NCBI GenBank assembly: GCA_001443395.1
Contig: LDXK01000001.1
Location: forward strand, 64,001-128,000
Length of the DNA: 64,000 bases
Direction: 5' to 3'
Source: a candidate division WWE3 bacterium CSP1-7
GTDB lineage: Bacteria; Patescibacteriota; WWE3; 9FT-COMBO-53-11
The notes under the pieces are model-generated. The model was not told the DNA's origin. It did not search any database and saw only the letters and a list, made by a program, of their open reading frames with translations. Every line of letters starts with the position of its first letter. Position 1 is the stretch's first letter. Shown here piece after piece: positions 8,036 through 64,000 of this stretch. A program made the position numbers and the translations under genes.

Positions 8036-8392
8036 GCGTAGGAAATCGGACGATCGCTCGCCTTAAAAGCGAGAGGAAAGTCCTGACTCCTTAGAGCAAG
8101 GGTTGGGCCGCAAGGTCCGACGGGTGACTGCTGGTGGTCCGAATCGAAAGAATTCGGACACGGGTCTCGAATTAACGAGACCCGAGAGCAACAGAGACGA
8201 GCTTGGATCTAAACCGCAAGGCATGATTCAAGAGTGAAACGGGCAATCCCACCTGGAGCAATCCACGAACGCACCTTAGGCTGCTCGCCGATGCTTTTGA
8301 TGACAAATTTTGGCCAACAAAGGCAGGGTGCAAAGATGGAGCTTAGAGAGATGATCGTCTAAAACAGAATCAGGCTTACTGGTTTCCTGCGC
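8036..8392 (+). ncRNA. rnpB: RNase P RNA
   Basis: GAGGAAAGTCC, GTGAAACGGGCAATCC and ACAGAATCAGGCTTA conserved blocks; P1 pairing gcgtaggaaatc/ggtttcctgcgc; extended -10 TGaTAAAAT at 8021-8029. Confidence 0.93.
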
Positions 8393-8430
8393 AAGAAAAC
8401 GTCCCGCTGAAAGCGGGGCTTTTTCGTTTT
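8393..8430. terminator. Intrinsic terminator between convergent rnpB and the AI-2E gene
   Basis: cccgc-tgaaa-gcggg stem with A-rich and T-rich flanks. Confidence 0.7.
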
Positions 8431-34964: not shown

Positions 34965-35987
34965 ATGGCGAAAAACGCTAGGGTCTTTCAGCCGCCGAGC
35001 CTTGCTGACCTTTATAGGAAGCATGAAAGCCTGCGAGTTTGGCGCGTCAAAAGCCTGAAGCGGCACCACGAGAAGAGCCGCCGCCTCCGTCAGCGCCGCA
35101 ACTTCAAGCGCTATCGCATCCGGATAATCGCCCGCCTACCGGGGGTAACCGTCTGGAGCATAGACGCGGATGCCCTTCGCGAAGGACTGGAAAAAGGCGA
35201 TGTGGATTTCACGATGGGCGGGCACGGATACACCCACCTCTATATCCCCCCAAATGAAATCTGGATCGCCAACGACCTACGGCGGCGTTCTGTCGTGCCG
35301 ACAATCTGGCACGAATACTTTGAACGGTTGCTGATGCGCGGGGGGATGCACTACAACACCGCCCACTCCCTCGCCTCTCGGCTGGAAATCACTCATCGGG
35401 AGGGAACCTACTTTGTTCTGCCGGTCGGAACTCATCACCAGAGAGAAGATGGCTTCTGCTTGCCGGCGACGCTCAAGATCTACCTAAGCTATCTGGGCCG
35501 GAACTTCTCCGAAGGACACCTTGCTCGGCTCTGCAAAACCACGGTCGAAAATGGCACCGATCCGATCAACGTCGTCACCGCGGTGCGCCGCCTTGGTTTC
35601 AGGGTCCAACATCGGGGCCGACCGCTGATGCTTCGGGAAATTCAGCGTTACTGCTCGGCCGCCGGAGCCAAGGGCAAGGAAAGGAAAGAGCTGACCAATC
35701 AAGTTCGCCGGCAAGCGGGCACCGTTCGGGTCCATCAAGCCTGGACCGCCGCGGAAGTCAAGAAGTCCCTCAAAAAGGGGCGGCCGGTCCTCGCCAACAT
35801 CCAACTTAGCCGGGAGTACAAAAGCGGGCACTATCTAGTGGTCATCGGCTACACCAGCAACACCTTCGTCGTCAGTGACCCGAACGACGATAACGGTTAC
35901 CGGGAAATCCCGATCCCCGAGTTCATGAAGCTCTGGTATGAACTTGAGGACGGCACCGTTCGCGAAGGTTTTACAATCTCGTCTTAG
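34965..35987 (+). CDS. Paralogous HExxE/H domain plus C39-like peptidase fusion
   Basis: DFTMGGHGY, WHEYFER, QREDGFCLPATL, GHY, SDP, LWYELED motifs shared with the upstream gene. Confidence 0.75.
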   Translation: MAKNARVFQPPSLADLYRKHESLRVWRVKSLKRHHEKSRRLRQRRNFKRYRIRIIARLPGVTVWSIDADALREGLEKGDVDFTMGGHGYTHLYIPPNEIWIANDLRRRSVVPTIWHEYFERLLMRGGMHYNTAHSLASRLEITHREGTYFVLPVGTHHQREDGFCLPATLKIYLSYLGRNFSEGHLARLCKTTVENGTDPINVVTAVRRLGFRVQHRGRPLMLREIQRYCSAAGAKGKERKELTNQVRRQAGTVRVHQAWTAAEVKKSLKKGRPVLANIQLSREYKSGHYLVVIGYTSNTFVVSDPNDDNGYREIPIPEFMKLWYELEDGTVREGFTISS

Positions 35988-35990
35988 CGA

Positions 35991-36023
35991 GATTGCTAGG
36001 TTCGCGAAGCGATCCGTCCGATC
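35991..36023. repeat. GAC/TAG hairpin element, copy 12
   Basis: gattg-CTA-g-gttcgc-gaa-gcgatc-c-GTC-cgatc. Confidence 0.82.
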
Positions 36024-36031
36024 TTCAACTG

Positions 36032-36067
36032 AACCCCCAACTTGGGATGCCAAGCTGGGGGTTTTTA
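36032..36067 (+). terminator. Intrinsic terminator
   Basis: aacccccaacttgg...ccaagctgggggtt followed by a T run. Confidence 0.75.
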
Positions 36068-36110
36068 TTGACCAATTCTGCTACATTTATTCCAGGGAGG
36101 TGATTAATCA

Positions 36111-56335: not shown

Positions 56336-58076
56336 TTTGGATAGGAAACACCCGCCCGTAGATCCGGCGGATCCCACTACCGGCCGATTCCTCCTTGATT
56401 ATCTCAAAACGGCCGAGTTGACTGGTCTTTGTTACGTGCGGCCCCCCGCAGAGTTCCTTGGAAAAAGAACTCTTGGGATCGTCACCGACGTGATAAAGAG
56501 AAATTTCTTTGACTCGGGCGTATTTCTCGGAAAATTCCGCCTCGGCGCCGAGCTTTTTGGCCTCCTCAAAAGTGGTAATTACTCTTTTCACCGGGAGATT
56601 TTCTTTTATCTTCTCATTCACCAAATCACCCACCTTCTCGATTTCGGCAGCGGTGAGTTTGCGATCGAAGGTGAAATCGTGCCGAAACTTGTCAACCTCC
56701 AAGTGCTGACCGGCTTGGTGCACCTGTGGTCCCAAAACGGTTCGCAGAGCGGCGTTGAGAAGATGGGCCGCGGTGTGTTGGGGAGCAATCAACTCGTCCT
56801 CTCCTTCCCGCTTTTTCGCAGCCGCCCGGGCTCGCTTCCGCTGCTCTTCAAGATTTTTTTCAAACTCTCTCACGTCCACCTCCCAGCCCTTGGGTTTCGC
56901 CAACTCCTGGGTTAGCTCCAACGGAAAACCATAGGTGTCATAGAGAACGAAGGCGTTGACGTTCTTGCCCATTTTTTCCATCACGCGAAGCCCCTGAGCC
57001 AACGAACGTGAGAACTTCTGTTCCTCTTCTTCAACTACCACCTGAATCTCCTTCTCGCGCGCCGCCAGTTCGGGATAGGTATCGCCGTACATTTCAATCA
57101 CCTTGCGGGTTGGTTCCAGCAAAAAGTATCCCTCGATTCCCAGAAGCCGGCCGTGCAATATTGCGCGACGCAATATTCGCCGCAGGACATAGCCTCGGCC
57201 CACGTTCAGCGGCGTCACCCCGTCCCCTACCATAAATACGGCGCCGCGGAGGTGGTCGGCGATGATCCGCAGCGATCGCAGCTGAGCGGGCTTCAGATCG
57301 TTTTTGCGCTCCACGAGATGCGCCAGCTGGTGGAGCAGATCCAGCAACGGCGCAAAAAGATCGGTTTCAAAAACGTTGTCTTTCTTCTGCAGAATCGAAA
57401 CGAGGCGATCCAACCCCATTCCGGTATCGATGTTCTGGGATTTTAGTTTGGAAAATTTTCCAGCATCATCTTTGAGATACTCCATAAAGACCAGATTCCA
57501 GAGCTCAATTTCCTTTCCATCGTCTAAGACGTAATAGATCTCCGAACAGGGACCGCAAGGTCCAACCTTTCCTCCGGGAGGACCCCAAAAATTGTCCTCT
57601 TTCCCCTGTTCGCGAATTTCGATTCCCGGAACCTCCTTTTGCCATATTTTGATCGCCTCCTCGTCGCGAGGAATCCCCGGCTCTCCAGCAAAAACAGAAA
57701 CAAACATCCGCTTCGGGTCCAGCTTCAATTCTTGAATCATAAAATTCCAAGCCAAAGGAATTGCTCCGTCCTTAAAGTAGTCCCCTATGGAAAAATTACC
57801 CAACATTTCAAAAAAAGTGAGGTGGCTTTCGTCCCCCACCTCCTCAACATCGGAGGTTCGAAAGCACTTCTGGACCGAGGCGAGACGGACATTGCCGAAT
57901 CTTTCTTGAGCGTCGGCTTCACCTATCATGTAGGGCTTGAACTGCTGCATCCCGGCGGTGGTCAAGAGAACAGAATCGTCAGTGGGCGGCGGAACTAGTG
58001 GAGAAGAAGGCACGACAGTATGGTCGTGGGAAACAAAATAATCGAGGAATTTTTGACGGATTTCTTGATGAGTCAT
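56322..58076 (-). CDS. alaS: Alanine-tRNA ligase (short, lacks the C-Ala domain)
   Basis: AGMQQFK, FFEMLGNFS, DTGMG, HTAAH, ELCGGPH motifs; ends just after the editing domain. Confidence 0.96.
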   Translation of the reverse strand: MTHQEIRQKFLDYFVSHDHTVVPSSPLVPPPTDDSVLLTTAGMQQFKPYMIGEADAQERFGNVRLASVQKCFRTSDVEEVGDESHLTFFEMLGNFSIGDYFKDGAIPLAWNFMIQELKLDPKRMFVSVFAGEPGIPRDEEAIKIWQKEVPGIEIREQGKEDNFWGPPGGKVGPCGPCSEIYYVLDDGKEIELWNLVFMEYLKDDAGKFSKLKSQNIDTGMGLDRLVSILQKKDNVFETDLFAPLLDLLHQLAHLVERKNDLKPAQLRSLRIIADHLRGAVFMVGDGVTPLNVGRGYVLRRILRRAILHGRLLGIEGYFLLEPTRKVIEMYGDTYPELAAREKEIQVVVEEEEQKFSRSLAQGLRVMEKMGKNVNAFVLYDTYGFPLELTQELAKPKGWEVDVREFEKNLEEQRKRARAAAKKREGEDELIAPQHTAAHLLNAALRTVLGPQVHQAGQHLEVDKFRHDFTFDRKLTAAEIEKVGDLVNEKIKENLPVKRVITTFEEAKKLGAEAEFSEKYARVKEISLYHVGDDPKSSFSKELCGGPHVTKTSQLGRFEIIKEESAGSGIRRIYGRVFPIQNAKN

Positions 58077-58120
58077 CACTAGAAGAGTATAGGATACCAA
58101 GCCGACAATTTGCTAACTGA

Positions 58121-58283
58121 AAATAAAAAGGGGCACCGATCTGCCTTGGTCCCTACCGACCAAGGCAGGTCGCTGCCTCCAAAATCCTAGACCTCGGAGG
58201 TCTAGGACGACCTCTCCCAAACTCGCTTCTGCCGAAACGAGTTTAGGAGAGAGGTCAACTCAACCGGAGTTGGGTTGACCTCG
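58121..58283 (-). other. Four stacked hairpins ending in a terminator-like stem and U tract
   Basis: gaggtcaac/gttgacctc, ctcctaaactcg/cgagtttgggag, cctagacct/aggtctagg and ctgccttggtc/gaccaaggcag stems, then TTTTATTTT on the minus strand. Confidence 0.7.
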
Positions 58284-58287
58284 ATGA

Positions 58288-58902
58288 TCAGGCACGGTAG
58301 AGAAGAACAAGACCCTCCGCCACTGACATAGCGAAATCAGGTTGAAGCGATTGAGGTTCCCCGATCTTCTTACCGTTTTCCTTCCGCCGGGCCATGATCA
58401 GTCGGCCGTCCGGAAAGAAGAGAGGTACGCGCGCCTCGAGATTGATGCTCAAGGACTTCTGCCCAGGAACCTCAACTCCATCCAGGTAGAACGGGTTGAG
58501 GAACGCCCGGACGCGCCAGAAGGCGGTGCGGAGCATTTCCTGAAGCTCGGCGCGAATTGCATCCTTCACCTGCATGAACTCCGCCGAAGGCATCGCGAAC
58601 TCCCGCCGGGCGAAGAGGAACCGGACCATGTAGTAGGTCTGATTGAGCCGATCCCCGTCCACCCGCTCTTGGTAGAACGCATCCACCAGCTCGAACCCGT
58701 TCCCTTCGAAATCACCGACAAGGTGCCCGAGGAAAACGTTCTCGGTCGGTTCGATCACTCGTTCCCCGGTCGCCTGCAGCTTGCGGGCGACGTACTCGAA
58801 GGCGGTTTCTCGCTTCCGCCGCTTGATTCCCGAGGGAATAACTTCGGGATTGGAGAAGCTGAACTGAACCACAATCATTCGAACGTTTTGCAGCGGGACC
58901 AT
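58288..58902 (-). CDS. Hypothetical protein
   Basis: 204-aa ORF with GGGAGG SD before ATG 58902; no family recognised. Confidence 0.75.
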   Translation of the reverse strand: MVPLQNVRMIVVQFSFSNPEVIPSGIKRRKRETAFEYVARKLQATGERVIEPTENVFLGHLVGDFEGNGFELVDAFYQERVDGDRLNQTYYMVRFLFARREFAMPSAEFMQVKDAIRAELQEMLRTAFWRVRAFLNPFYLDGVEVPGQKSLSINLEARVPLFFPDGRLIMARRKENGKKIGEPQSLQPDFAMSVAEGLVLLYRA

Positions 58903-58929
58903 CGGAACCTCCCGAAGCATTCAAGGGCT

Positions 58930-59520
58930 TGGAAATTTAACCGGTTATCCGGACCCTTTCCTAAGCGCGCCAATCTCTTGGCGGGCTTGGGAAAACTGCG
59001 CTTTTAGATAACCCGGAAGCGCATAACCGGGAGAAGTGGATCACCTCCCTTCAGAACTTTCTTTCCGGTCTCCGATTGCCGTAGGCGAAGATCGAACCGA
59101 TCCACCAGAAAAGAAATTGAAGCAACACGTCTCTGCTCCTTTCCGAAGGTTTCGAACCCACTCGTGGTGAGCGGAGTCGAATCCAGCAGTCCGCCTAAGG
59201 TGGACTCTTGGATTCGGCCGATGAGAAGAGTGATGCTCCTCATCGGCCGCGGGCTGTTTCACGGTTGGCGGGAAGCGCAACTTAGTGAAACTCGCCCGGT
59301 GGGAAACTAACGTGATTCCCGTGACGGTAATCTCTCCTGATTCCTGAGAACCGCCCACGAAAATGGCAGGATGGTCCAACTCTCCTTTCTTAAAAAGAGG
59401 AAAGCAGGTGTCCCTCACCTTCTCGTGAACGAATCTCAAGAAACAAAAACCGGGCCTAAAGCCCGGGATATGTTCATCCGCAACTTTAGGTAGGTAAAGT
59501 CAGCTAATCGGATAGGTTTT
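58930..59520 (-). ncRNA. Candidate large structured RNA or leader
   Basis: More than 10 consecutive or nested hairpins directly downstream of a near-consensus promoter; overlapping ORFs look spurious. Confidence 0.55.
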
Positions 59521-59532
59521 TAACTTAACTTA

Positions 59533-59561
59533 ATAGTAACAGCCGGATGTCCTCTTGTCAA
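59533..59561 (-). promoter_or_regulatory. Near-consensus sigma70 promoter
   Basis: TTGACA, 17 nt spacer, TACTAT with extended TG. Confidence 0.75.
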
Positions 59562-59623
59562 GAACTATGGGTTTTACAACCCGGGAAGTTAACTCTGTAT
59601 TCAAAATAGCTATAATCATCTTG

Positions 59624-59658
59624 AAATGGACGCTCTGATGAAACAGAGCTAGCATTTT
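59624..59658. repeat. GAC/TAG hairpin element, copy 14
   Basis: aaatg-GAC-g-ctctg-atgaaa-cagag-c-TAG-cattt. Confidence 0.88.
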
Positions 59659-59670
59659 AAAAGAAATAAA

Positions 59671-61782
59671 ATGTCTACCAGATATCGCCGGCGCGCAATG
59701 AGAATCAATCTCAAGGATGAGAGCTTCCAATCCACTATCGGGATAATCCTAGTGGTCTTTTCAATCCTGGCAGTCCTCTCATTCTTTGGCCAAGCCGCCG
59801 GATTTGGTTCTTTTCTCCAGGACTACCTCAACCGGATATTCGGCTGGGGCGCTTTCATGTTCCCCATCGTGACAGGACTCCTAGGTTTGGTCCTGCTTCG
59901 CCTCAGAGTCAAAATCCCCTTTGTCGAAATTCGGATCTTCTACGGATTGGTGATCCTCTATATCTCTCTATTGGGATTGTTCCACTTCTTCTTCTCAACG
60001 GAGGTATCGCAATACCAAGCCAGTATTGGACAGGGAGGAGGCCTAACCGGTTACTATGTCCAGCTGATCCTCCGCCGCATCTTCTCGACGATCGGCGCCT
60101 TCCTTGTTCTCTCGGCCGGGGGCACCGTCGGAATCCTGGTAACGCTGAACATCTCCTTCGACGAAGCCCTATTCTATCTCGCCAAAGTCGCCCAGAAGAT
60201 TGGTCGATTGATCCAGGAAAATATCTGGCGCGGGAAAGATTTCAAGGAGCCGTTGCGGCCTTCGGTGAATAGGGAAGCATCCGAGACCAAACCCGAGGCC
60301 TCCTCGGAGGGGGAAGAAATTGAGATCGCCACCCCCTACTCCGCCCCAACCACCCAGATCACGACTCCGCGCCGCAAACTGACCTGGGAATACCCGTCGC
60401 TGGACCTGCTCAATGATCCTTCCGAAACTGCGGCCGAACGGGGTGATATCGAAAAGAACGCCCAACTGATTGAACAGACTCTGGAATCATTTGGAGTAAA
60501 AGCCCGGGTCGCTGATATCAATCTCGGCCCGACCGTTACCCAGTATGCTTTGGAGGCCGAGCGCGGCACTAAACTCTCCGCTATCACCAACCTCTCCTCC
60601 GATCTGGCTCTCGCGCTTGCTTCCAAAACCGGAACGGTCCGAATTGAGGCCCCAATTCCCGGAAAATCTCAAGTGGGGGTGGAGGTTCCCAACCTCAAAC
60701 CGCAGCTGGTCACGTTGAAAGAAATTATCACCTCGGACCAATTAGGAGAGGGGGCCCACAAACTAGCGGTTGGGTTGGGACGGGACGTTTCGGGAGCATC
60801 AATCGTTGATGATCTTGATCGAATGCCACACATTCTGATTGCGGGAGCGACCGGATCCGGTAAATCCATCATGCTTCGCACGATCCTGGCGACGATTCTT
60901 TTCCGAGCTTCCCCGGAAGAAGTTCGCCTGATCCTGGTCGACCCCAAGCGGGTAGAATTTTCCCATTACAACGGAATTCCCCACCTTCTCATGCCGGTGA
61001 TTGTCGAACCCGAAAAAACTCTCCCGGCCCTGAAGTGGGCGATGGCGGAGATGAACAAACGCTACAAACTTTTCCAAGAATCGGGAGTTCGCGACATCGG
61101 TGATTACAACGAAAAGGCCGAGGAAAAAATGCCCTACGTTCTGATCGTGGTCGACGAACTCGCCGATATCATGGTCGTCGCTCCGGCCGAAGTGGAGAAA
61201 GCTATCACCCGCCTGGCCCAGATGGCCCGGGCCACAGGATTGCACTTGATTCTGGCAACCCAGCGTCCCTCCACCGACGTTCTCACCGGATTGATTAAAG
61301 CAAACATCCCCTGCCGCATCGCCTTCAATGTCACTTCCCAAATTGACTCGCGAGTAGTTCTCGACATGCCGGGAGCGGAAAAACTGCTTGGCAAAGGAGA
61401 CATGCTCTACCTTCCCCCCGATCGCTCCAAACCGATTCGAATCCAGAGTCCTTTTGTCTCAAACGAGGAGATGAACCGGCTCCTCGAGTTCCTCAAAAAT
61501 TCAGGATGGGCCCCCGACTATGTCGTGGAAGAGCAGGTGGAAGAGATGGAGCGACAGGTCGAAAGGATGGGAGAGCCGACCGATCCCCTCTTCGCTGAAG
61601 CGGTTGAAATTGTGATCCAATACGAGCGGGCCTCGGCTTCCCTCCTGCAGCGCCGCCTCTCGATCGGCTACGCCCGCGCGGCTCGGATTCTGGATGAGTT
61701 GGAAACGCGGGGAATCGTGGGGCCGGCGGAGGGCAGCAAACCCCGAGAGGTATTGCGGCGCAATACCGAGGAGATACTCTGA
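59671..61782 (+). CDS. ftsK: DNA translocase FtsK/SpoIIIE
   Basis: N-terminal transmembrane domain, GATGSGKS, DELAD, ATQRP, gamma domain SLLQRRLSIGYARAAR. Confidence 0.97.
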   Translation: MSTRYRRRAMRINLKDESFQSTIGIILVVFSILAVLSFFGQAAGFGSFLQDYLNRIFGWGAFMFPIVTGLLGLVLLRLRVKIPFVEIRIFYGLVILYISLLGLFHFFFSTEVSQYQASIGQGGGLTGYYVQLILRRIFSTIGAFLVLSAGGTVGILVTLNISFDEALFYLAKVAQKIGRLIQENIWRGKDFKEPLRPSVNREASETKPEASSEGEEIEIATPYSAPTTQITTPRRKLTWEYPSLDLLNDPSETAAERGDIEKNAQLIEQTLESFGVKARVADINLGPTVTQYALEAERGTKLSAITNLSSDLALALASKTGTVRIEAPIPGKSQVGVEVPNLKPQLVTLKEIITSDQLGEGAHKLAVGLGRDVSGASIVDDLDRMPHILIAGATGSGKSIMLRTILATILFRASPEEVRLILVDPKRVEFSHYNGIPHLLMPVIVEPEKTLPALKWAMAEMNKRYKLFQESGVRDIGDYNEKAEEKMPYVLIVVDELADIMVVAPAEVEKAITRLAQMARATGLHLILATQRPSTDVLTGLIKANIPCRIAFNVTSQIDSRVVLDMPGAEKLLGKGDMLYLPPDRSKPIRIQSPFVSNEEMNRLLEFLKNSGWAPDYVVEEQVEEMERQVERMGEPTDPLFAEAVEIVIQYERASASLLQRRLSIGYARAARILDELETRGIVGPAEGSKPREVLRRNTEEIL

Positions 61783-62705: not shown

Positions 62706-62823
62706 GTTCCGGCGATGACCTGCTCTCCCAGACCCGAAGGCCAAGTACCATCAGCGCTAGAGGCTTTTACGACCGAGTTCGGAATGGGATCGGGTAGTTC
62801 ACCTCCGCTCAAATCACCAGAAC
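62706..62823 (-). rRNA. rrf: 5S rRNA
   Basis: Reverse complement contains ACCCGATCCCATTCCGAACTCGG...GATGGTACT...GGGAGAGCAGG. Confidence 0.96.
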
Positions 62824-62840
62824 ATTTCTACCTTCAAGGT

Positions 62841-62875
62841 AAAATGCTAGCTCTGTTTCTTCAGAGCGTCCAATT
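62841..62875. repeat. GAC/TAG hairpin element, copy 16
   Basis: aaaatg-CTA-g-ctctg-tttctt-cagag-c-GTC-caatt. Confidence 0.88.
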
Positions 62876-62933
62876 CTGCCTCCAAGCAAAACACTAGCTC
62901 TGCTTGGTCAAAGCGGAACTGATAGCGGAAAAG

Positions 62934-64000
<1,067 letters not shown>

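Follow-up and report, generated by a model that had tools for sequence, protein, structure and literature searches.

What lies between ftsK and the alanyl-tRNA synthetase gene alaS of the candidate division WWE3 bacterium CSP1-7, where some 600 nt of predicted RNA stems precede a 204-codon gene and four further hairpins? The locus falls within a 64,000-nt stretch of the genome (contig LDXK01000001.1 of assembly GCA_001443395.1, positions 64,001 to 128,000; hereafter the window), whose coordinates are used throughout, and all features of the unit are on the minus strand. A preliminary description, made from the sequence of the window, had read the interval as one self-contained unit inserted between the two genes, namely an undescribed large non-coding RNA (ncRNA), a ribonucleoprotein (RNP) module consisting of an RNA and its partner protein, or an elaborate leader. 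On balance, we favour a composite, in which an ancestral, attenuated and hairpin-rich transcription unit is combined with an accessory, recombining gene that we call X; among the options originally offered, the elaborate leader fits best.

The 610 nt at 58921-59530 have a predicted folding energy of -257.7 kcal/mol, significantly below the mean of -200.2 for 20 dinucleotide shuffles (z -7.97), and all the stems that had been listed for this near-continuous array are in the sequence. The largest and most conserved stem, which belongs to a long hairpin (LH), was absent from that list. The 170-nt tail at 58121-58290 comprises the four hairpins and U tract previously described (z -12.26, 200 shuffles). 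A sliding 200-nt fold of both strands, corrected for GC content, placed the strongest structure outliers of the whole window in this region, with residuals stronger than those at the ribosomal RNA (rRNA) and RNase P RNA regions.

Comparison with relatives showed that the promoter, leader, LH, hairpin cluster and last tail hairpin (H4) are ancestral at the ftsK-alaS locus and are present in three genomes without X (G001, G008 and G005), so that the interval is not one self-contained inserted unit. The organism's family, f1, makes up a whole order and is represented by 10 genomes; absences from genomes that are 80-92% complete are given here as 'not found'; relatives' genomes and their loci or contigs carry the internal labels G and L of the analysis. 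Pfam confirmed ftsK and alaS (584 aa; tRNA-synt_2c and tRNA_SAD) as the neighbours of the unit, which is single-copy in its genome (572 kb, 7 contigs, 80% complete), and the family gene order is a divergent ftsK, a variable interval of 1.1-4.1 kb and alaS. Within this interval, G001, G008, G003/L042 and G005 share one order of modules: the promoter, the leader motif CCUACCUAAAG, a terminator-like hairpin (T1), LH, a short ACCGUCACGG hairpin, a small open reading frame (ORF) S2 in some relatives, a cluster of three hairpins (HPa-HPb-HPc), a Shine-Dalgarno sequence GGAAAGGAG with a second small ORF, S1, in some, a module containing GGAGGUGAUCC, a short RNA related to transfer-messenger RNA (mini-tmRNA), H4, a third small ORF, S3, in some, and alaS.

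Apart from the mini-tmRNA, every non-coding module is present in the window in the family order, with S2 missing. After the S1 Shine-Dalgarno sequence there is just a 25-codon ORF, whereas relatives encode S1 (75-83 aa) there, and an alignment with L043 shows that ~175 nt, including the whole mini-tmRNA, are missing, which is why the GGAGGUGAUCC module abuts the 5′ untranslated region (UTR) of X. With S2, S1 and the mini-tmRNA missing here, the hairpins follow directly on one another and resemble one RNA of 600 nt; in relatives, small ORFs interrupt it, and the 600 nt of the window are thus a concatenation of leader and intercistronic hairpins and not a single ncRNA. The proposed insertion between genes fits X, its short 5′ UTR and three hairpins that follow it (H1-H3), all of which look inserted, and fails for the rest, which is ancestral to the family. 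Two ORFs that might have given this region a coding explanation (59041-59439 and 59004-59243) are not maintained as reading frames: stop codons or shifts of frame interrupt them in L041, L037, G001, G008 and L042. For genome scans, the locus is a caution that an apparent 'large ncRNA' may be what remains of an operon, collapsed after the loss of its small ORFs.

The small proteins that recur between the ftsK-alaS hairpins of relatives (S2, ~68 aa; S1, 75-83 aa; S3, 89 aa) are encoded at L037:2259-2462, L037:2654-2902, L086:450-716 and L042:899-1129, with homologues in G005 and G009; no Pfam family was found for S1, S2, S3 or two other small ORFs. The 25-codon ORF of the window, which has a strong Shine-Dalgarno sequence, would encode a hydrophobic peptide with a basic tail, resembling small membrane peptides such as type I toxins, and was found only in the window and the 96%-identical L041, at the S1 site of relatives.

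The predicted hairpins are maintained by compensatory change, in counts that overstate independence because the compared sequences are interrelated: in LH (7 sequences), 6 of the 39 predicted pairs carry compensatory double changes and few are broken, the HPa-HPb-HPc cluster has 21 such pairs among 45 (6 sequences), and H4 has 4 among 19. Sequence conservation is higher in LH than around it, with a mean column identity of 88% in a six-sequence alignment from two genera; the internal loops of LH do not vary, but its apical loop does. A model of LH scored 102-119 bits on the forward strand and 25-35 bits on the reverse, which fixes the strand, and matched 6/10 family genomes and 0/124 other genomes of the class (6/134 in all). 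The HPb stem is wholly replaced in G005 with the hairpin retained, and the pairing of the cluster is kept compensatorily in both the window and G001, neither of which has S1 or S2. The H4 loop, GGUAGG, is invariant in 9/9 sequences. Downstream of X, conservation with compensatory changes is also seen in H1 and at the base of H2, the changes of H1 in L042 and L043 being judged by eye.

Table 1. Features of the ftsK-alaS interval, in 5′ to 3′ order along the minus strand.
Feature	Position in window	Strand	Support or remark
Promoter TTGACA-17-TACTAT, sigma-70-type, with TG extension	59533..59561	-	Hexamers and spacing kept in 7 related loci
Leader motif CCUACCUAAAG	59484..59494	-	Near-invariant among relatives
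T1, terminator-like hairpin	59440..59466 (GC-rich stem-loop 59450-59466, then U tract)	-	Consensus scan
LH, long hairpin of ~100 nt with conserved internal loops	59340..59445	-	Covariation
Short hairpins, including conserved ACCGUCACGG element	59301..59332	-	S2 follows here in relatives
Three-hairpin cluster HPa, HPb, HPc	59178..59299	-	Covariation
Conserved Shine-Dalgarno GGAAAGGAG and 25-codon ORF (GTG 59128, stop 59051-59053)	59051..59144	-	
Module containing GGAGGUGAUCC	58956..59054	-	45-330 nt upstream of mini-tmRNA in relatives
5′ UTR of X	58903..58960	-	Travels with X in L043, L044 and L042
X ORF, 204 aa	58288..58902 (ATG 58902, stop 58288-58290)	-	Family profile
Hairpins H1 (58251-58282), H2 (58213-58250) and H3 (58184-58208)	58184..58282	-	3′ of X
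H4 (58130-58180) and U tract (58121-58129)	58121..58180	-	Family-wide, upstream of alaS

These RNAs are undescribed, as had been proposed: Rfam 15 returned no match for the region in the scan of the window at gathering score, and only chance-level rows at E ≤ 10. An identity of LH with signal recognition particle (SRP) RNA or 6S RNA was rejected, as the region has no RF00169, RF01854 or RF00013 match, the distribution of LH is too narrow and its apical loop is variable. The SRP RNA models themselves found no match in 21 class genomes (RF00169) or in 5 (RF01854), one of the genomes being 100% complete, and the SRP RNA of the class is therefore either unrecognised by Rfam or missing. The upstream 600 nt are not a decayed paralogue of X either, since the X-family profile finds only X in the six frames of 57900-59800. 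The retention in relatives of stable hairpins between and after cistrons is reminiscent of stabilisers such as repetitive extragenic palindromic (REP) sequences and bacterial interspersed mosaic elements (BIMEs), but the hairpins here are single-copy with no dispersed repeat family, and LH and H4 have conserved loops or internal loops, which suggests specific recognition.

The minus-strand promoter reported in the preliminary description was found (Table 1), and the sequence of its spacer varies among related loci. T1 lies ~75 nt downstream and has the GC stem-loop and U run of a terminator, the stem-loop being followed by TTTTTGTTTC; a U run follows T1 in 7/7 related leaders. The core of the leader motif, CCUAAAG(C/U), has its complement in GCUUUAGG, a segment extending across the T1 loop, and CCUACC, next to it, has its complement in the invariant H4 loop. 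For six leaders, the best fold was compared with a fold forced to form the antiterminator pairing: the two coincide in L037 and G001, while the forced fold lies above the best by 2.7 kcal/mol in the window, 3.1 in G008, 6.6 in L041 and 7.0 in L042. Sequence changes in the partners of the antiterminator and loop-loop pairings are wobble-compatible only (L041 and L042). As CCUACCUAAAG is able to pair with T1 instead, read-through is probably regulated and T1 is a probable attenuator, and the complementarity of CCUACC to the H4 loop could allow a 5′-3′ loop contact. A consensus scan found no other minus-strand promoter before X, so X may depend on read-through.

This arrangement resembles known attenuation leaders (trp, pyr and riboswitch platforms) in its promoter-proximal GC hairpin with U tract, its upstream segment that can pair with half of it, and its two folds of similar predicted energy. 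It differs from them in lacking any detected match to a known aptamer, leader peptide or T-box element, and in having the greater part of its structured RNA after the terminator instead of before it. A T-box leader was rejected, there being no RF00230 match at E ≤ 10, and the unit ends at H4 and its U tract before alaS. To our knowledge, little is known about gene regulation in these uncultured, minimal-genome organisms, and the leader/attenuator together with the 100-nt hairpin provides a covariation-supported candidate cis-regulatory RNA that is absent from Rfam.

Gene X is real, as first described: its 204-aa product gives a full-length match to a profile of its homologues. A word-indexed search recovered 97 homologues among 298 candidates, nearly all of 199-220 aa, and the few that are named come from Parcubacteria and other Patescibacteria, while an exhaustive profile search gave at least 695 clusters (50% identity) at E ≤ 1e-3, 328 of them with E ≤ 1e-30. 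From these sequence relationships, X is a gene of a large, uncharacterised family of Patescibacteria. An AlphaFold2 model built from a 22-sequence alignment is confident (mean predicted local distance difference test score 92.1, predicted template modelling score 0.88) and shows an alpha/beta core, two long beta-hairpins and a small C-terminal beta domain. The protein is basic (isoelectric point 8.9), and among its invariant residues are four arginines, a tyrosine and, on the first strand, Q19/S21.

Neither sequence nor fold matched a described family. Pfam gave nothing at E ≤ 1 beyond two chance-level rows, PHROGs, PADLOC and NCBIfam gave no family match, and a sequence profile search of the PDB reached E 1. 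For the model, the best Foldseek hit in the PDB had E 0.24, the best VIA-align hit among 48,161 chains had Z 3.1, and the best BFVD hit had E 0.014, with weak rows for CRESS-virus proteins at template modelling scores of at most 0.28; the best ESM Atlas score, 0.79, was under the lead threshold. No longer, fused forms of X turned up, which is weak evidence. An identity with the TnpA of IS200/IS605 or with REP-associated tyrosine transposases (HUH Y1) was rejected for lack of a Y1_Tnp Pfam match and of an invariant histidine, and a retron for lack of a reverse transcriptase domain in X and of any other ORF in the unit. With a large family and a confident fold that matches nothing solved, X is a target for structural and functional work.

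X was found in 3/21 relatives, all in the organism's own genus, where one site is occupied by at least five types of allele that share 53-72% identity. Their relationships are discordant with those of the flanks: compared with L041, the window is 96% identical upstream and 70% identical in X, whereas compared with L037 it is 77-81% identical upstream and 94% identical in X. Contigs L039 and L040 match the window at 100% identity on either side of X, while X itself diverges from about codon 45 to the stop. In four DNA sequencing runs, depth over the divergent X segment is about half that of the flanks and contigs of the second allele join across, showing that both alleles coexist. Two divergent copies of X stand in tandem in L044, with H1-H2 after each, H2 flanks X on both sides in L042, and X directly follows the mini-tmRNA in L043 and L045. 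Such swapping of alleles between strains is of the kind seen at loci under diversifying selection.

Outside the genus, X is preceded within 400 nt by a transfer RNA (tRNA) gene on the same strand in 10/60 distant loci. Structured flanks (z ≤ -4) were found upstream of X in 22/65 and downstream in 25/63 distant loci, against 7/69 for control stretches inside the ORF, figures that are noisy with 10 shuffles per stretch. One subgroup of distant X genes has a leader hairpin of ~20 bp, 30-45 nt upstream of X, with an invariant UUUUGC preceded by AGUUCUUUU; 11 of its 23 pairs show compensatory changes. Its model, R3, matches 17/75 X loci and neither the window nor its family, and the hairpin is a candidate cis-regulatory RNA of the X family. 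Loci with the leader hairpin are L013-L017, L021, L029, L046-L050, L058, L060, L063, L077, L095 and L098. Partial duplicates of tRNA 3′ halves were seen near X homologues at L053:2747-2834, L034:4973-5065 and L065:2354-2508, and could be remnants of insertion events. A search for flanking direct repeats or att-like duplications at X gave nothing convincing, and the one tyrosine recombinase of the genome (PF00589) is on contig C3, away from the locus.

In its promoterless-looking ORF with an imperfect palindrome, tandem arrays and allele exchange at a fixed locus, X recalls integron cassettes and Xer-dif modules. It departs from both in having no adjacent integrase, in one break point that falls inside the ORF, and in hairpins that, though no formal model was used, are without the defining attC or 28-bp dif architecture; an integron cassette was rejected, as no IntI integrase adjoins X. 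The order of promoter, structured RNA, terminator-like hairpin and ~200-aa ORF is likewise that of type III toxin-antitoxin (TA) systems such as ToxIN, but the RNA here is without tandem direct repeats and exists without X, and X has no PADLOC or Pfam match. A type III TA system was rejected on a Tandem Repeats Finder result of 0 arrays in 58000-59700 and the lack of a PADLOC match for X.

The mini-tmRNA with which the unit ends in relatives is 133-137 nt long and occurs in 6/10 family genomes (G001, G003, G005, G007, G008 and G009; loci L117-L122, alignment A2), not being found in the remaining four; it is also present at L042:1703-1843 and L043:302-442. It matches the tRNA-like domain of tmRNA from end to end, including both acceptor strands, the G3-U70 pair and the T arm, but its middle is 63 nt against ~300 nt for the mRNA-like domain and pseudoknots of tmRNA. 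The covariance model R1 of the mini-tmRNA matches L042, L043 and L045, and does not match the window (at most 6 bits with filters off), L041, L037/L012 or G002. Full-length tmRNA of 370-421 nt was found in ten genomes of other families of the class. SmpB (PF01668) was found in the same ten, out of 11 genomes of other families, and in 0/10 genomes of the organism's own family, including G000 (80% complete).

In the window itself, ARAGORN found no tmRNA and one tRNA only, distant from the unit, and no tmRNA-clan match was obtained in 57900-59800 at E ≤ 10. A divergent or permuted tmRNA (RF00023 or RF04321) was considered because 11 nt agree with the tmRNA 5′ consensus and one string resembles a T loop, and was rejected, as R1 gave no match and nhmmer reached E 0.11; the 11-mer, at ~59176-59186, is the 3′ arm of HPc, which in G001 adjoins the real mini-tmRNA on its 5′ side. 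The likeness to tmRNA loci is confined to relatives, in which the RNA closing the transcription unit matches the tRNA-like domain of tmRNA, and even there this RNA is 133-137 nt with SmpB in 0/10 genomes, while the window is without such an RNA. Genes for tmRNA are classic sites beside which accessory DNA accumulates, and the tmRNA-SmpB system counts as near-universal among bacteria. The comparison suggests that trans-translation has been lost in the family and a conserved tRNA-like relic kept beside alaS. A whole family would then seem to be without SmpB and yet to keep a mini-tmRNA under purifying selection, the window genome being without even this remnant. In the literature searched, nothing was found on tmRNA or SmpB loss in this group, and passages of PMC6514570 do not bear on the question.

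Taken as a composite, the interval may work as follows. The ancestral promoter would drive a leader of ~85 nt that ends in T1, and alternative pairing of the invariant CCUACCUAAAG with T1 would make read-through subject to regulation. The read-through RNA would carry LH and the three covarying hairpins, which in relatives would form the leader and intercistronic spacers of a small-protein operon (S2 and S1) ending with the mini-tmRNA and H4, just before the alaS promoter. The hairpins may serve as stabilising, processing or binding sites. In the window, S2, S1 and the mini-tmRNA would have been lost to leave the skeleton of a partly decayed operon, and X with its 5′ UTR and H1-H3 would sit where the mini-tmRNA ended. 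X would be expressed by read-through from the upstream promoter, or from an unseen promoter, with transcription ending at H4 and the U tract ahead of alaS, and would be exchanged between strains by recombination. Of this account, the anatomy, conservation, covariation, synteny and swapping of alleles are observations, whereas transcription, attenuation and the part played by the hairpins are inferred.

Several points weigh against this reading. No RNA run holding the stretch is among the sequencing runs listed, the antiterminator and loop-loop pairings rest on invariant sequences without covariation support, and the promoter scan for X was a simple consensus match. That S1, S2 and the mini-tmRNA were lost here, as opposed to gained elsewhere, would follow from parsimony, and the comparisons involve 6-9 related, non-independent sequences. 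LH was not found in 4/10 family genomes, and where it occurs its sequence is conserved more than simple spacing or stabilisation would require, a hint that LH may have a specific ligand or a function of its own.

This conservation makes a trans-acting LH a serious rival, one that we nevertheless regard as unlikely. LH, with or without the hairpin cluster, would then be a stand-alone ncRNA of the family that acts in trans or binds a specific protein, with the small ORFs as passengers; it would be freed from its transcript, which in relatives RNase P would do by cutting at the tRNA-like mini-tmRNA. The strong, conserved promoter of LH, its invariant internal loops, an identity above that of its surroundings, compensatory pairing kept in the window and G001 without S1 and S2, and the lack of a match to any known family are all in keeping with such an RNA; a conserved terminator-like hairpin between promoter and LH, the variable apical loop, the restriction of LH to just 6 of the 10 family genomes and none of the 124 others, and the same lack of RNA runs are not. 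That the upstream region is merely a functionless, decaying relic of the operon of small ORFs and mini-tmRNA seems extremely improbable to us. S1, S2 and the mini-tmRNA are indeed gone, with just the 25-codon ORF after the retained Shine-Dalgarno sequence, but the stems are intact and show compensatory changes relative to G001, L037 and G005, the promoter and T1 are intact, and the folding z-score is far under that of the shuffles.

Other alternatives turn on the role of X. The RNP originally proposed, in which X would serve the upstream RNA, the tail hairpins or both as a dedicated partner that binds them, has in its favour the basic charge of X with its invariant arginines and tyrosine, the frequent strongly structured flanks of distant X genes, and the conserved R3 hairpin before X, which would suit autoregulation by way of its own leader. 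However, LH and the cluster occur without X in G001, G008 and G005, X is widespread in distant lineages without LH and the cluster and with a different leader hairpin there, and its fold matches no RNA-binding protein, so a dedicated RNA-protein pair is unsupported and we consider it very doubtful. X with H1-H2 could instead be a hairpin-bounded cassette whose hairpins are recombination sites at the DNA level, like attC or Xer sites, although we think this quite unlikely. It would explain the allele swapping, the tandem copies and the place beside tRNA-like genes, and it accords with the X-H1-H2-X-H1-H2 array of L044, H2 on both sides of X in L042, the allele types discordant with their flanks, the coexistence of two alleles in the same populations, the patchy distribution of X and its position after tRNA genes or the mini-tmRNA. 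Set against this, no integrase or transposase adjoins X and the sole tyrosine recombinase is on another contig, no flanking direct repeats were found, RNA 3′ structures explain the hairpins equally, and the 5′ break point of L040 lies inside the X ORF, which fits ordinary homologous recombination. A more ambitious reading would make the hairpin RNA a new functional RNA system specific to an order-level lineage that has given up SmpB, consisting of LH, the three-hairpin cluster and usually a 133-nt mini-tmRNA beside alaS and tied, as substitute or regulator, to alanyl-tRNA synthetase or ribosome rescue, with X as an exchangeable, hairpin-recognising cassette of new fold; we hold this to be very unlikely.

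Elsewhere in the window, an RNase P RNA (RF00010) was found at 8038-8394 on the plus strand with 87.8 bits, under the Rfam gathering score of 100, and is therefore missed at the default threshold. The end of the window (62707-64000, minus strand) holds a 5S rRNA and the 3′ part of a 23S rRNA, both ordinary. On both strands, positions 35901-36100 rank second for structure among the 200-nt stretches of the window, with GC-corrected residual z-scores of -3.4 and -4.2.

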